Below, one piece after another: positions 10,284 through 14,326 of a stretch of DNA of 58,798 nucleotides. The translations under genes and the position numbers were made by a program. The stretch is taken from assembly GCA_964541255.1 (NCBI GenBank), contig CAZIPL010000005.1:1-58798 (forward strand), written 5' to 3'. The notes beneath the pieces were generated by a model that made no database searches, was not told the DNA's origin, and saw only the letters and a list, made by a program, of their open reading frames with translations. Position 1 is the first letter of the stretch; every line of letters begins with the position of its first letter. This DNA is from an uncultured Clostridia bacterium. GTDB taxonomy: Bacteria > Bacillota > Clostridia > Christensenellales > CAMQZB01.

Positions 10284-11006
10284 TCACGCAATACTTTCGA
10301 TAAAAGCAAGCGTTTCTTTGACGGCTTCCGACCACTGCTCGCCATTTGATATAGTAGCGACTCCGTCTCCGTCTTGCTCGCCGTAAGATCCGAAATACGC
10401 ATGGTTTCCGCCTTTTATGCAAATCTCTTTATATTTGCTTTTATCCACAAGCTCTCTTCTCTCAACAACCTTAGACATAGTCAAGACCTCGTCGTTTTCG
10501 CCGTAAAGCGAAAGAACGGGAATGCTTTTTTCGGTCAAGTCGCTTGCCGTATATGCGGCGAAAAAGATAAGCCCGTCGATTTTGTTTTCCGTTATCTCGA
10601 CGTACTTTGCCGCCATCGCACCACCCATCGAATGTCCGCCGATAAACACTTTTTCATAACTTCCCGCTTCCGCGACGGAATCGGCAGCGCTTATTCCGAA
10701 TATCGCCATATTGCACGGCATTTTGACAAGCGCGACGTCAACGCCGTTTTTCGCTAATTCGTGCATAATAGGCGCATAAGAGGTATATTCGACCTTTGCA
10801 CCCGGATAGAATATCAGCAAAGTTTCGTCTCCGTCACCGTCGAAAAACAGTCCGTAAGATTTCTCTTCGACAAATACCTCTTTGTTTGAAGACAGATATA
10901 CTTCGACGTCGACTGCTTTATAATAAGAAAAAAGATACCACGCGACAGCAAGAACTATCGCGATAACGACAAACGCCGTCAAAATTCTTTTTATGCTTTT
11001 TTTCAT
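10284..11006 (-). CDS. Alpha/beta hydrolase (carboxylesterase-like) with N-terminal membrane anchor
   Basis: FYPGAKV, GGHSMGG nucleophile elbow, GGNHAYFGSYG; start reassigned to MKKSIKR after GAGG. Confidence 0.85.
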   Translation of the reverse strand: MKKSIKRILTAFVVIAIVLAVAWYLFSYYKAVDVEVYLSSNKEVFVEEKSYGLFFDGDGDETLLIFYPGAKVEYTSYAPIMHELAKNGVDVALVKMPCNMAIFGISAADSVAEAGSYEKVFIGGHSMGGAMAAKYVEITENKIDGLIFFAAYTASDLTEKSIPVLSLYGENDEVLTMSKVVERRELVDKSKYKEICIKGGNHAYFGSYGEQDGDGVATISNGEQWSEAVKETLAFIESIA

Positions 11007-11222
11007 TTTATATCCTCTCGTAATGCTTTTTATCGTTTCATAACTATAATTAAAGTTTAGCAAATCGCGAGCGATAAAACAAGATAATAAATCAAAAAGT
11101 CGAAGAATTTTGTCTAAACCTATCTTTTTCATACAACGCAAAAGGCGCAATATTTGATATTGACACGAACGCATTCAAGTAGTATAATTTTTTCAATAAA
11201 ACAAATAATCGGAGGAAACTTT

Positions 11223-11582
11223 ATGAACAAAGAAGTTCTCGAATACGTCAAAGAACAGTCAAACGCGCTTCTTACAGCCCATTCTGCATGTCCCGAGGTC
11301 AAAGAGGCGGCAAGAAAATGGCTTGAAGCGGTCGGAACGGAAAACGAAAAAGCCGAAACTATCGCATACCTAAAAGAGCTTGAAGAGGACATCGAGCCTA
11401 TCGACGGACTTTTGGCATTCGCATCTTCTCCCGTTGCCGAAAAAGTCTTCGGAAAAGAGGGTGCGGAAAAGTTCCTCGAGCACGCAAAGGAGCTTAAAGC
11501 GTCGGGCGCAAAATATTGCGACTGCCCCGCTTGCAAAGCTTGCGAAAACATTCTTTCGAAAAAAGAAGAGCTTTTGGGATGA
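11223..11582 (+). CDS. Conserved small protein with C-terminal CDCPAC motif, function unknown
   Basis: GGAGG RBS then MNKEVLEY; SACPE and YCDCPACKAC. I recall this Clostridial family being labelled Hsp90 without real similarity to HtpG. Confidence 0.75.
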   Translation: MNKEVLEYVKEQSNALLTAHSACPEVKEAARKWLEAVGTENEKAETIAYLKELEEDIEPIDGLLAFASSPVAEKVFGKEGAEKFLEHAKELKASGAKYCDCPACKACENILSKKEELLG

Positions 11583-11715
11583 AACAACCATTTACTGTCT
11601 CCCCATAATCCACCAGCAGCATCCATTTATTCCAAAAAGTAGTATTTGAAGAAGTATAATCGACACAAACGACTTTTTGCCGCTCTGACACATTAATTTA
11701 ATTAATGAATTTATA

Positions 11716-11750
11716 AAACTCGGCTTGATAAAAGTCGAGTTTTCTTTTTC
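11716..11750 (+). terminator. Intrinsic terminator
   Basis: AAAACTCGGCTT-GATA-AAAGTCGAGTTTT followed by CTTTTT. Confidence 0.75.
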
Positions 11751-11762
11751 AGCTTAAAAGTA

Positions 11763-11791
11763 TTGAATAAAACGGGAAATTATGATATACT
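11763..11791 (+). promoter_or_regulatory. SigmaA-type promoter with extended -10
   Basis: TTGAAT(11763)-N17-TATACT(11786), TG at -15/-14; predicted +1 near 11797 coincides with the start of the long hairpin. Confidence 0.75.
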
Positions 11792-11795
11792 AAAT

Positions 11796-11987
11796 TTGCG
11801 ACACAATTAAATAGCACAAAAGGCATATGGGAATAATATACCTTTTTTTGCATTGCCATAATATTTGAATTTGTCAAAAATGCAAATTCCGATTTATTAT
11901 GGTAATGTGGTTATTCCCATGCTGTTTTAATTGTGTCGCAACACGGAGTTTGCGTTTTATGTGCGTAACTTCGGTTGCGCACTTTTT
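11796..11987 (+). ncRNA. Candidate ~190-nt structured RNA or leader (long imperfect hairpin plus terminator)
   Basis: Perfect 16-bp inverted repeat 11796-11811/11926-11941 enclosing three more helices; own promoter and terminator; no credible ORF. Confidence 0.55.
11961..11987 (+). terminator. Intrinsic terminator with C(UUCG)G loop upstream of the methyltransferase
   Basis: GTGCGTAAC-TTCG-GTTGCGCAC-TTTTT; the G.U pair and UUCG loop favour the + strand. Confidence 0.8.
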
Positions 11988-12029
11988 ATTTATAAAGGTG
12001 CGACTTTATGGAAAAGGAACATCAAGAAT

Positions 12030-13082
12030 ATGGCGACAAACAGCAATCTGCAAATGTCAAGAGCAGGGAAAACCGACGAATTCTATACACAATTATCTAC
12101 CATTGAAGACGAATTAAGACATTATCGCAAATATTTTAAAGATAAAATTGTATTTTGTAATTGTGACGATCCATATGAAAGCAATTTTTTTAAGTATTTC
12201 GCCCTAAACTTTAATGCATTAGGGTTAAAAAAATTAATAACTACGTGTTATGCGACCTCTCCTATTTTCTACACTCAATTAAATATCTTCGGTGAAAACA
12301 AAAACATTAAATTAATACAGGAGGGGAAAAAGCCATATAAAATCGAAATTACCGAAGTCAAAGATTCCGACGGGAACGATACGGTTGATTTGTCAGATGT
12401 TTGCTATTTATTAAAAAACGACAAAAATGCTTTAACTCTATTAAAAGGCGATGGTGATTTTCGCTCGGAAGAATGTTTAAAGCTTTTGAAAGAAGCTGAT
12501 ATTGTCGTTACAAATCCTCCCTTTTCTTTATTGAAAGAATACTTACCTTTATTAGTCAACGAGCAAAAGAAATTCATAATATTAGGAAACATGAATCATG
12601 CAACTTGGGCTGAAACATTTCCATATTTTATAGAAAACAAAGTATGGTTGGGAGTTAATAGCGGACATTTTTGGTTTAAAGTACCTGATTATTATGAAGC
12701 AAAAGGGACTGATTATAAGCAAGACGATACTGGACAAAAATGGCGAAGATTAGGAAATATTTGTTGGTTTACAAATCTTGATCTTGCTATAAGACATATC
12801 CCTTTAGACCTATATAAAAAGTATACACCAGAAAATTATCCGAAATACGACACCTATGAAGCGATAGATTGCGGTTATGTACAAGATATCCCGTATGACA
12901 CCGATAAAATTATAGGTGTACCATTAACGTTTTTGGCAAAACATTGCAAAGAACAGTTTAGAATCGTCGGAGAATTACATACCGGTTCAGGGAATAAATA
13001 TGATTTCGCCTTTCCGAAAATAAATGGTAAGAATAAGTATATCCGAATTTTAATACAAAATATAAACCCCAAAAAGGAATAA
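12030..13082 (+). CDS. Adenine-specific DNA methyltransferase, EcoRI family (PF13651-like)
   Basis: KTDEFYTQ, FCNCDDPYESNFFKYF, GDGDFRSEEC, VVTNPPFS catalytic motif, GVPLTFL; start reassigned to MATNSN. Confidence 0.92.
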   Translation: MATNSNLQMSRAGKTDEFYTQLSTIEDELRHYRKYFKDKIVFCNCDDPYESNFFKYFALNFNALGLKKLITTCYATSPIFYTQLNIFGENKNIKLIQEGKKPYKIEITEVKDSDGNDTVDLSDVCYLLKNDKNALTLLKGDGDFRSEECLKLLKEADIVVTNPPFSLLKEYLPLLVNEQKKFIILGNMNHATWAETFPYFIENKVWLGVNSGHFWFKVPDYYEAKGTDYKQDDTGQKWRRLGNICWFTNLDLAIRHIPLDLYKKYTPENYPKYDTYEAIDCGYVQDIPYDTDKIIGVPLTFLAKHCKEQFRIVGELHTGSGNKYDFAFPKINGKNKYIRILIQNINPKKE

Positions 13083-13088
13083 AAAATT

Positions 13089-14201
13089 ATGAAAATCGAA
13101 AGAGCACAAATCCCAATCAAAGAATTGGTTAAAGGTTATGAGGAAAATGGCATAGACGGCGTTGAGGGCATTGTTGCATATGACGGCAAATTAGACGTTC
13201 GTCCTCCTTATCAAAGAGAATATGTGTATGCTCAAAAAGAACGTGACGAAGTAATACGAACGATTAAAAAAGGATTCCCGCTCAATATTATGTATTGGGC
13301 AAAAAGCGAAGATGGATACTACGAGTTAATGGACGGACAACAACGAACCATTTCTATATGTCGCTATGCCGCTGAAAGCGAACGTACTTTTACCGTTGAT
13401 GAAAAATATTATTTTAATCTAGAAAAAGATATTCAGAAACAAATCAACGATTATATGTTAGATATATATATTTGCGACGGAAACCCATCCGAAATTCACG
13501 AGTGGTTTAAGGTTATCAATATAGCCGGAAAACCTTTAACCGCACAAGAATTGAGAAACACCGCATATACAGGAAGTTGGTTGTCGGATGCGAAATTACA
13601 TTTTTCAAAACCAACTTGTGCCGCATACAATATGGGAAAAGACTATATCAGCGGCTCCCCCATACGACAGGAATATTTAGAAAAAGCAATTGAATGGATC
13701 GCAGCACGCGACGGGTTATCTTCTGTGGAAGAATATATGGCTCTTCATCAACACGATGAAAACGCAAATCAAATGTGGATTTATTATAAGCGAATTATCG
13801 AATGGGTTGAAACGATTTTTCCACAAAAAAGAAAGGAGATGAAAGGAATTGAATGGGGATTATTATATAACGCATATAAAGATATTGAATTAGATCCGAC
13901 TGCTCTTGAATTAAAAATAAAAACTCTTATGATTGACGACGATGTTACAAATAAAAAAGGCATATATCCGTATGTTTTAACCGGGAAAGAAAAGTATTTA
14001 AACATACGAACATTTTCTGAGAACCAAAAAAGAGCAGCTTACGAGCGTCAAAACGGTATTTGTAGTAAATGCGGTAAACAATTCCAGTTGTACGAAATGG
14101 AAGCGGATCATATAACACCTTGGCATTTAGGAGGTAAAACCAACGCTGAAAACTGTCAAATGCTCTGCATGGAATGCAATCGCAGAAAATCAGGAAAATA
14201 G
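13089..14201 (+). CDS. DUF262 (GmrSD N-terminal/ParB-like) domain fused to a zinc-binding HNH endonuclease
   Basis: PPYQREYVY and LMDGQQR DUF262 motifs; C-terminal CSKC...EADHITPWHLGGKTNAENCQMLCMECN. Confidence 0.9.
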   Translation: MKIERAQIPIKELVKGYEENGIDGVEGIVAYDGKLDVRPPYQREYVYAQKERDEVIRTIKKGFPLNIMYWAKSEDGYYELMDGQQRTISICRYAAESERTFTVDEKYYFNLEKDIQKQINDYMLDIYICDGNPSEIHEWFKVINIAGKPLTAQELRNTAYTGSWLSDAKLHFSKPTCAAYNMGKDYISGSPIRQEYLEKAIEWIAARDGLSSVEEYMALHQHDENANQMWIYYKRIIEWVETIFPQKRKEMKGIEWGLLYNAYKDIELDPTALELKIKTLMIDDDVTNKKGIYPYVLTGKEKYLNIRTFSENQKRAAYERQNGICSKCGKQFQLYEMEADHITPWHLGGKTNAENCQMLCMECNRRKSGK

Positions 14202-14256
14202 AAGTTAAAACACATATACTACGCTCAATATAATTAAGTCGCATTTTTGCAAAGTA

Positions 14257-14297
14257 AAACAGCTTGCGTCATTATAAACGCAAGCCGCTTTTTATTT
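14257..14297. terminator. Bidirectional terminator between the nuclease gene and araA
   Basis: AAAACAGCTTGCGT-CATTATAA-ACGCAAGCCGCTTTTT between convergent genes. Confidence 0.65.
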
Positions 14298-14326
14298 TCT
14301 CATTCGTTATTCTTTCGGGGAAGGAG

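Follow-up and report, generated by a model that had tools for sequence, protein, structure and literature searches.

A promoter-anchored leader preceding an EcoRI-like restriction-modification operon probably belongs to a large family of transcription attenuators in gut and rumen Clostridia

The stretch of DNA analyzed here, referred to as the window, spans 58,798 nucleotides (nt) of an uncultured Clostridia bacterium of the order Christensenellales (assembly GCA_964541255.1, contig CAZIPL010000005.1, forward strand) and carries, directly in front of a methylase-nuclease gene pair, a unit composed of a promoter, a long hairpin (hereafter, the rod) and an intrinsic terminator, which is the subject of this report. 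The two genes encode an EcoRI-family adenine methyltransferase and a protein combining the GmrSD_N (DUF262) and HNH nuclease domains (Table 1). By PADLOC, the pair is predicted to be an ordinary Type II restriction-modification (R-M) system; the 'atypical' GmrSD_N-HNH partner is a catalogued restriction-enzyme type, because it matches the PADLOC Type II restriction endonuclease model from end to end. The methylase ATG (12030) lies 43 nt past the T-run of the leader terminator, and in the window no open reading frame (ORF) is found between the promoter and the methylase, hence no helix-turn-helix (HTH) controller gene there.

Table 1. Positions of the leader segments, the genes and the adjoining signals in the window (predicted helices and signals are given with their folding energies, where available)
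Feature	Position	Strand	Details
Intrinsic terminator of the upstream gene (11154-11582)	11715..11743	+	12-bp stem and T-run; terminator scan
Predicted promoter	11763..11791	+	-35 TTGAAT 11763-11768; 17-nt spacer; TG 11783-11784; -10 TATACT 11786-11791
Rod	11796..11941	+	closing helix P1, P1b, P3; ~146 nt
Helices P1b (UGGGAAUAA/UUAUUCCCA) and P3 (GCAUUGCCAUAAUAU/UAUUAUGGUAAUGUG)	inside rod	+	
Segment A (GAAUUUG)	11867..11873	+	5' arm of the apical hairpin
Segment B (AAAAAUGCAAAUUCC)	11876..11890	+	apical loop and 3' arm; can pair with A or C
Segment C (CGGAGUUUGCGUUUU; tail GGAGUUUGCGUUUU)	11944..11958	+	putative switch strand; can pair with B or with the terminator 5' arm plus loop
Predicted antiterminator hairpin, CGGAGUU-U-GCGU [UUUAUGU] GUGC-AACUUCG	11944..11973	+	11 bp; -10.4 kcal/mol
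Intrinsic terminator, GUGCGUAAC-UUCG-GUUGCGCAC + U5	11961..11987	+	-14.6 kcal/mol; DNA GTGCGTAAC-TTCG-GTTGCGCAC + T5
Post-terminator box AAAGGTGCGACTTTAT	11994..12009	+	16 nt, between terminator and ribosome-binding site; conserved in some methylase-linked copies only
Putatively regulated gene 1, EcoRI-family adenine methyltransferase	12030..13082	+	350 aa; Shine-Dalgarno AAGGAA 12014-12019; PF13651, E = 1e-121; PADLOC MTase_II, E = 7e-110
Putatively regulated gene 2, GmrSD_N (DUF262) + HNH nuclease (Pfam)	13089..14201	+	370 aa; 6 nt after the methylase; PADLOC REase_II, E = 2e-126, full model length
Operon-end terminator	14262..14285	+	terminator scan; near the right edge of the island

All the elements singled out in a preliminary description of this DNA, namely, the inverted repeat, the inner helices, the promoter and the terminator, are present at the positions it gave. 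The closing helix P1 is a perfect 16-bp inverted repeat (11796-11811/11926-11941) that grows to 21 bp in the minimum free energy (MFE) structure. Further inside the rod are the helices ATGGGAATAA/TTATTCCCAT (10 nt, 100%) and CATTGCCATAATA/TATTATGGTAATG (92%), the block GGGAAUAAUAUACC-U7 (11831-11850), which is the counterpart of a conserved 'P2' block of the leader family described below, and the apical hairpin GAATTTG/CAAATTC (11867-11873/11883-11889). Judging from the promoter geometry, the transcription start (+1) is predicted to fall on the first bases of the rod, around 11796-11798. The RNA corresponding to 11790-11990 folds at -74.1 kcal/mol, compared with -40.9 +/- 4.0 kcal/mol for 200 dinucleotide shuffles (z = -8.4), none of which is as good. 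The minus strand is also well folded (z = -7.4), as expected of any long palindrome, and the transcribed strand was assigned because of the G.U pairs, the promoter and the terminator rather than the strength of the fold. A single, weak match to a promoter is present on the minus strand inside the leader (11886-11858, 9/12), with 15 promoter-like sites region-wide versus a chance expectation of 12.6; this match appears not to be conserved, because its -10 element would sit in the variable P3 stem, and no conserved antisense promoter was seen in the promoter scan and the family alignment. A scan of the 43-nt spacer from the terminator to the methylase ATG gave no promoter-like site, in agreement with the earlier remark that no second good promoter precedes the methylase.

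Four segments of this RNA, A, B, C and the terminator 5' arm (T5'), can pair in mutually competing ways (Table 1). The antiterminator formed by C occupies the whole terminator 5' arm and the UUCG loop, and a nascent window RNA ended at the terminator loop is predicted to consist of the rod and the 11-bp antiterminator, with the latter at -10.4 kcal/mol versus -14.6 kcal/mol for the terminator. The alternative partner of C is B, the window B:C duplex being 14 bp long (2 G.U) and worth -16.9 kcal/mol. The UUCG loop is probably conserved because CUUCG pairs with CGGAG. Across the family, it is the tail CGGAGUUUGCG (11944-11954), not the 5' end of the RNA, that is conserved as a competitor of the terminator; the pairing between that end and the terminator 5' arm, which had been suggested at first, fits some subtypes only and is unconserved in the family. 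Two further candidate pairings were rejected: that of the P1 5' arm with the terminator 3' arm, which is likewise restricted to some subtypes and unconserved, and B:C followed by the U-run as a first terminator, which is ruled out by the fact that the U-run already pairs with the A-run of B.

The genome that includes the window (1.59 Mb, 82 contigs, 42% G+C) contains exactly two copies of the leader. The second copy (C67:222-416, minus strand) precedes a paralogous EcoRI-like methylase gene that is cut by the contig end; it is ~70% identical to the window copy, and the closing stems of the two are unrelated (TTGCGACACAATTAAA vs GACCAAGCTAATTT), each being perfectly paired. Related loci were found by BLAST in relatives, and a search for the exact pattern, with each species represented by one genome, yielded at least 118 loci, with the hosts among the pattern matches listed labeled as Acutalibacteraceae, Oscillospiraceae, Ruminococcus, Christensenellaceae and some Lachnospiraceae, from gut and rumen. 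A covariance model, R1, was built from 110 aligned members, including the window copy. R1 matched 49 of the 301 genomes in a sample of the order, representing 31 of 151 genera, with 1-7 copies each, and 115 of 399 genomes in a sample of the class, many with five or more copies; outside the class, there were no matches in a 301-genome sample of the phylum. The window copy (11794-11987) aligns to the entire model (positions 1-216 of 216) with 136.2 bits, compared with 145.1 bits for the C67 copy. The latter and the order-sample matches indicate that the family is real independently of the window.

No description of this family was found in Rfam 15 or by a full-text literature search. In a cmscan search of positions 11000-12800 against Rfam 15, no family was assigned to the locus even at E <= 10 (best hits at no more than 21 bits, E > 1), and eight family members compared with Rfam at the gathering threshold gave only nearby tRNA and signal recognition particle RNA genes. 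These searches bear on a retron-like msr-msd RNA or a 6S-like RNA, either of which might be brought to mind by the ~190-nt rod and by a closing stem that joins the two ends around inner hairpins; the likeness to retrons had been raised in the preliminary description. The probability of either is negligible: no match to RVT_1 exists anywhere in the genome, no reverse transcriptase is encoded among 92 proteins downstream of family members, RF00013 does not match the locus even at E <= 10, and a separate full-length 6S candidate is present on contig C8. This probable 6S RNA (G000:C8:33638-33834, L144) covers the full length of RF00013 with 38.5 bits, under the gathering score of 46.4. The canonical pattern gave no match in plasmids or, searched exactly, in IMG/VR. 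Two human fecal virome scaffolds labeled 'UNVERIFIED: Bacteriophage sp.' carry members that span the whole model, L263 (MT835503.1) at 334-532 with 143.5 bits and L264 (MT835845.1) at 1406-1564 with 77.8 bits.

The anatomy of the unit is shared across the family. The promoter of the 110 members consists of a -35 TTG and an extended -10 TGnTAnAnT at a fixed position, with the -10 element ending 4-5 nt before P1, a rule that the window fits, its TG-TATACT ending at 11791 and P1 beginning at 11796. The promoter is part of the unit, and by this geometry the RNA is predicted to begin at the base of the rod. P1 covaries (for instance, column pair 29:238 is AU in 41 members, UA in 34 and CG in 29), as does the upper stem of the terminator. 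The flanks of P3, the variable stem around the apex, pair at -14.5 kcal/mol with their own partners versus -4.6 kcal/mol when swapped, and the basal rod at -32.2 versus -16.3 kcal/mol (p ~ 4e-14); for the complete rod, z = -8.0 (76 members). Invariant sequence is confined to the apical hairpin with its loop (UGAAUUUG-AU-AAAAAUG-CAAAUUCC), the tail CGGAGUUUGCGUUUUU, and the terminator base with its CUUCGG loop. A leader peptide was considered and dismissed, given that the ATGs of the leader and the post-terminator spacer (11959 and 12008) are, on reading the sequences, not kept in the C67 and G022 copies.

The competing helices were examined for compensatory changes in 103 covariance-model hits, using an alignment fitted to neither B:C nor C:T5'. 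For B:C, 95.4% of the cells are paired, and 6 pairs, or 16 cells, are changed on both sides, a result equaled by 0 of 500 shuffles; slid controls are 65-83% paired, but a slide of -3 reaches 95.3%. For C:T5', 92.1% of the cells are paired and 5 pairs (19 cells) are double-changed, with slid controls at 8-63%. The apical helix A:B is paired in 91.2% of the cells, with compensatory changes in all seven of its pairs and slid controls at 7-58%, a count that leans its way because the alignment was fitted to A:B. Compensation is clearest in the divergent short members (140-165 nt), in which the distal part of C is altered and B and T5' are altered alongside. Thus, B, C and T5' read UUCCC, GGGAA and UUCCC in L185; GCUU, GAAAGC and GCUUUC in L190; and UUCUCUU, GAAGAGA and UCUCUUC in L193, with C GGGGUGCG and T5' UGCGCCCC in L189, and B GUGGGCUCC and C GGAGCUUGC in L025. 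The C:T5' helix is part of the nascent MFE structure in 93 of 94 members, for which the mean energies of the antiterminator and the terminator are -11.0 and -14.8 kcal/mol, respectively. The segments also match locus by locus: C fits its own T5' better than the T5' of other loci (p = 1.5e-6), and, in multi-copy genomes, C pairs with its own B at -17.8 kcal/mol versus -15.5 kcal/mol with the B of a sibling locus, the own partner being favored at 52 of 70 loci (p = 2e-7).

In the order sample, every copy with enough downstream sequence is followed by a same-strand ORF with a Shine-Dalgarno sequence. The ORF starts no more than 30 nt past the U-tract in 63 of 94 copies of the order sample and 62 of 105 of the pattern sample, and no more than 60 nt past it in 75 of 94 and 78 of 105, respectively. 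The leader thus appears, from its placement, to act in cis on the next gene. The downstream genes themselves are diverse. The 182 distinct proteins fall into 136 clusters, none of which suggests a recurrent regulator gene. Of the downstream products, ~40-50% appear to be secreted and ~20-25% have a lipobox. Among 92 downstream proteins compared with Pfam, BspA-type leucine-rich repeats were found in 8, EcoRI_methylase, the second commonest family, in 5, and zinc ribbons in 4, with the rest scattered or unmatched.

The preliminary description had reckoned with the hairpin recurring as a miniature inverted-repeat transposable element (MITE). A MITE or another selfish palindrome located upstream of the methylase by chance would account for an imperfect palindrome that is long, can fold on either strand, is present in multiple copies in many genomes (up to at least seven), has conserved blocks near-identical across families and, here, forms part of the cargo of an island. 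Yet the unit invariably points towards a downstream gene on its own strand, 15-40 nt away, and has the promoter and the terminator as constant components; moreover, the helices retain G.U pairs, which are mismatched in DNA and on the other strand, the stems covary as RNA while differing wholly in sequence, and the genome of the window has two copies only. All scorable copies face a same-strand downstream gene, no search having been aimed specifically at target-site duplications, and we regard a transposable palindrome as extremely improbable.

Taken together, these results make it very probable that the element serves the methylase-nuclease operon as its 5' leader and is a member of a large, uncatalogued family of promoter-anchored transcription attenuators in gut and rumen Clostridia. 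An attenuator was one of the two options in the preliminary description, and it is borne out by the covarying antiterminator, the lack of a second promoter, and a same-strand gene no more than 30 nt past the U-tract in about two-thirds of ~200 members. Under this model, transcription would start at the first base of the rod and proceed through the 15-nt tail C and the terminator to the ribosome-binding site of the next gene. If C is free as the terminator 5' arm emerges, the antiterminator would form first, holding the 5' arm and the loop and leaving the 3' arm without a toehold, and the polymerase would continue into the methylase and nuclease genes. If C is instead held by B, the terminator would form and a ~190-nt RNA would be released. 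In the folded rod, B itself would be held by A, such that the chain A:B / B:C / C:T5' / T5':T3' would constitute a terminator, antiterminator and anti-antiterminator switch. We infer that termination is truly conditional and that read-through is the default: local folding of the rod during its synthesis, together with its great stability, should leave C free in an undisturbed transcript and favor read-through, and termination would then need the delivery of B to C. The rod (~-57 kcal/mol) and B:C are mutually exclusive within one folded molecule, because the 5-nt linker cannot span a helix of ~45 bp.

Several observations weigh against the attenuator model. The antiterminator is weaker than the terminator, so that its effect hinges on kinetics or on a factor; when only the tail is folded, the terminator state has the lower energy in 87 of 94 members, with a mean margin of 3.8 kcal/mol in a constrained comparison. 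At equilibrium, the full-length window RNA consists of the rod and the terminator (-73.9 kcal/mol), a forced B:C state being 21 kcal/mol worse, and the modeling implies that B:C in cis would require the rod to be kept open by something. The 5' and 3' strands of the rod taken alone show no special structure (z = -0.4 and -0.85, respectively), and the idea of designed alternative folds of either strand, for which these values give no signal, was abandoned. In addition, the 110-member alignment was picked by an exact pattern in C, the covariation of C thus coming from ~25 divergent members found by the model, and covariation counts on related sequences are not probabilities. Finally, the transcription start sites, the 3' ends and the read-through are predictions from sequence.

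An alternative is a leader without a regulatory role, in which the rod would only shield the transcript from decay that depends on the 5' end, the terminator would serve as a constitutive, leaky damper that holds expression from a strong portable promoter at a low, fixed level, and the other helices would be mere by-products. In Firmicutes, mRNA is known to be stabilized by pairing of its 5' end. Such a role would agree with a rod that begins at the predicted +1 and forms regardless of other events, with diverse downstream genes that share no obvious signal, and with the fact that neither a ligand pocket nor a protein site was identified. This alternative is unlikely, however: B:C and C:T5' are kept by compensatory, even three-way, changes, as by-products would not be, and although a device with a fixed ratio would still need C:T5', it would not need B:C.

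An equally unlikely explanation is a riboswitch for a small molecule or ion, in which the fate of C would be set by the occupancy of an aptamer made up of the rod, its junction and a conserved block, GGGAUAnUAUACCC-U5. In Firmicute transcriptional riboswitches, too, a promoter is followed by a structured domain, an antiterminator/terminator platform and then the gene, and the canonical subfamily of the leader has conserved unpaired blocks. The short members of 140-165 nt, however, lack the junction and the P2 block and retain the full B/C/T chain. Furthermore, the rod is nearly all paired and, at ~-57 kcal/mol, too stable to be tipped by a ligand, P1 is clear of the expression platform, and the downstream genes have no common metabolic theme.

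The leader is not specific to R-M genes. Homologues of the methylase are present in 38 of the 301 genomes of the order, and relatives retain the methylase and GmrSD_N-HNH pair whether or not they carry the leader. The leader was found at 3 of 29 fetched homologous methylase loci (G044, G022 and G275; ~10%), with 26 lacking it. In a maximum-likelihood methylase tree, the four leader-bearing methylases correspond to three gains or losses of the leader, and the window methylase clusters with three leaderless ones (100/100 support). These distributions speak against the other option of the preliminary description, a stand-alone ~190-nt noncoding RNA that would be a functional part of the defense module (a guide, decoy or antitoxin-like RNA), transcribed from its own promoter and always terminated. 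The strength of both the promoter and the terminator would suit such an RNA, as would the location of both copies in this genome ahead of EcoRI-like methylases, the rank of EcoRI_methylase as the second commonest downstream family (5 of 92), and the post-terminator box common to three methylase-linked copies. Nevertheless, the unit precedes 136 unrelated protein clusters, and 26 of the 29 homologous methylase and GmrSD_N-HNH cassettes are without it, such absence from orthologous cassettes having been named at the outset as evidence against a defense-specific element. The carriers are also scattered on the methylase tree, a covarying antiterminator would be pointless in an RNA that is always terminated, and the methylase lacks a separate promoter-like site, all of which makes a defense RNA a very unlikely proposition. 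The box AAAGGTGCGACTTTAT is identical or nearly so in the window, C67 and G022 copies, all of which are methylase-linked, and is missing from the G044 copy and from the non-methylase copies, which suggests that leader and methylase travelled together within sub-lineages. As a separate observation, potential pairing partners of GGTGCGAC within this box are the terminator 3' arm (CGCAC) and the P1 3' arm (GTCGCA).

Two of the homologous loci show other peculiarities. The leader-linked EcoRI-like methylase at G275:C6:23331-24409 (L252) has four in-frame stops in its N-terminal part and is likely a pseudogene; its leader is intact, with 130.9 bits. At L239 (G028:C1:150273-152262), two EcoRI-family methylase paralogues are arranged in tandem and the GmrSD_N-HNH nuclease is missing from its usual position.

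The leaderless relatives and a congener illustrate what can take the place of the leader. In the closest leaderless relative, L234 (G025:C46), a small ORF of the XRE-type HTH class with its own promoter lies directly upstream of the methylase (~300 nt), such that a predicted controller-like gene holds the position of the leader. In L238, a promoter is located directly upstream of the methylase, possibly together with an opposite-strand gene of the HTH type, according to an unchecked reading of the sequence. The window flanks (left to ~11585, right from ~14331) enclose ~2.6-2.7 kb, and in the congener G001 (L265, G001:C4:54600-56300), they enclose 1.4 kb of unrelated cargo, made up of a 225-aa ORF and a 125-aa ORF. 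The leader is placed inside a mobile island because the G001 flanks enclose this other cargo; the syntenic hot spot lies between a 142-aa ORF and araA, with window positions 11750-14320 as the cargo. The terminator of the upstream gene, just beyond the left edge of the island, insulates the leader unit from transcription arriving from that side; in G001, an equivalent terminator is found at this position, ahead of its different cargo.

For the attenuator, several triggers can be envisaged, and we list them in descending order of likelihood, each being tentative at best. The first is an RNA-binding protein, which would open the rod or prevent its formation, or else stabilize the antiterminator; sequence conservation in P1 and in the C/U-run block exceeds the needs of pairing. 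The second, also reasonably possible, is leader RNA from the same or a sibling locus acting in trans via B, in the form of finished leaders or processed apical hairpins. Third, and somewhat doubtful, there may be no trigger at all but a fixed-ratio attenuator, with kinetic partition damping a strong portable promoter. A small ligand, an ion or a physical cue seems rather unlikely, and something else altogether more unlikely still. The locus-specific covariation of B and C fits action in cis or at the own locus and does not choose among these triggers.

A more specific version, which we put forward as a speculative possibility, is that the family constitutes a self-contained, RNA-only control device carried with horizontally acquired cassettes. 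The rod would separate B from its own C, so that a lone or newly arrived copy would read through. As leaders accumulate, their loop-presented B would capture nascent C in trans and force termination, the active species being, alternatively, apical hairpins freed by RNase III. Such sense-strand 'self-antisense' feedback would play here the role of a controller protein, providing an establishment burst followed by low maintenance expression, and loci that share a B/C code could be coupled. This scheme fits with B:C being impossible in one folded molecule, the leader being part of the island cargo, controller genes occupying the same position in relatives, and the B/C codes within a genome being partly orthogonal.

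The proposed attenuator shares features with several known systems. Like the PyrR-controlled pyr leaders of Bacillus subtilis, the rplJ and infC leaders, and the trp-type attenuators, it would rely on three mutually exclusive helices in a 5' leader, with one strand deciding the outcome. Unlike the PyrR leaders, it has no PyrR-binding motif, and the Rfam family of PyrR binding sites does not match at E <= 10; furthermore, the anti-antiterminator partner B is located ~55 nt upstream, where it caps a rod of ~45 bp that begins at +1 and topologically excludes B:C. In contrast to PyrR-type attenuators, the family would regulate unrelated accessory genes, without a leader peptide or a known effector. 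The antisense attenuation of pT181, pIP501 and pAMbeta1 is similar in that a loop-presented sequence pairs with the nascent leader before the terminator and forces termination, the toehold being provided by a hairpin loop, and in the control of horizontally moving cassettes. In the pT181 type, however, the pairing partner is a countertranscript from the opposite strand, whereas here, B is on the same RNA and its action in trans is hypothetical. As in the control of Type II R-M operons by C proteins, a dedicated regulatory module is located directly upstream of the R-M genes, the position at which L234 has its XRE-type HTH gene, but an RNA and a terminator replace a protein and an operator, and the leader is not specific to R-M genes. 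Finally, the succession of a promoter-proximal structured domain, antiterminator/terminator competition and a gene is common to transcriptional riboswitches and T-box leaders, which differ in that the present family has no Rfam match, a nearly fully paired rod as the would-be sensor domain, and short members without a junction.

If the attenuator model is correct, ~30% of the sampled Clostridia genomes, including many dominant uncultured lineages of the gut and rumen, use one portable promoter-leader-terminator cassette, which precedes surface proteins, small membrane and zinc-ribbon proteins, and R-M systems. Identification of the input signal would open a regulon in organisms that are almost without genetics. 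The window would represent a natural case of an RNA attenuator in place of a controller protein before a Type II R-M operon, with a bearing on how a toxic pair becomes established after transfer. For engineering, the five-segment strand swap with its diverged B/C/T5' codes could be a source of orthogonal transcription attenuators. The aspects that are new here are the link to a Type II R-M operon, the leader standing in for a controller-type gene, its location on an island, and the confinement of the family to one class.

Two additional arrangements were observed among family members. Tandem leaders precede one gene in L185 (1078-1219 and 1301-1446), L012 (438-602 and 167-360, minus strand) and L229 (1018-1228 and 1301-1529), each with its own B/C/T5' code, an organization that recalls tandem riboswitches. 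In three other loci, tRNA genes (L145, 1358-1431; L130, 7225-7298; L146, 62-134) lie ~70 to 800 nt upstream of the leader, which may reflect the integration of islands beside tRNA genes.

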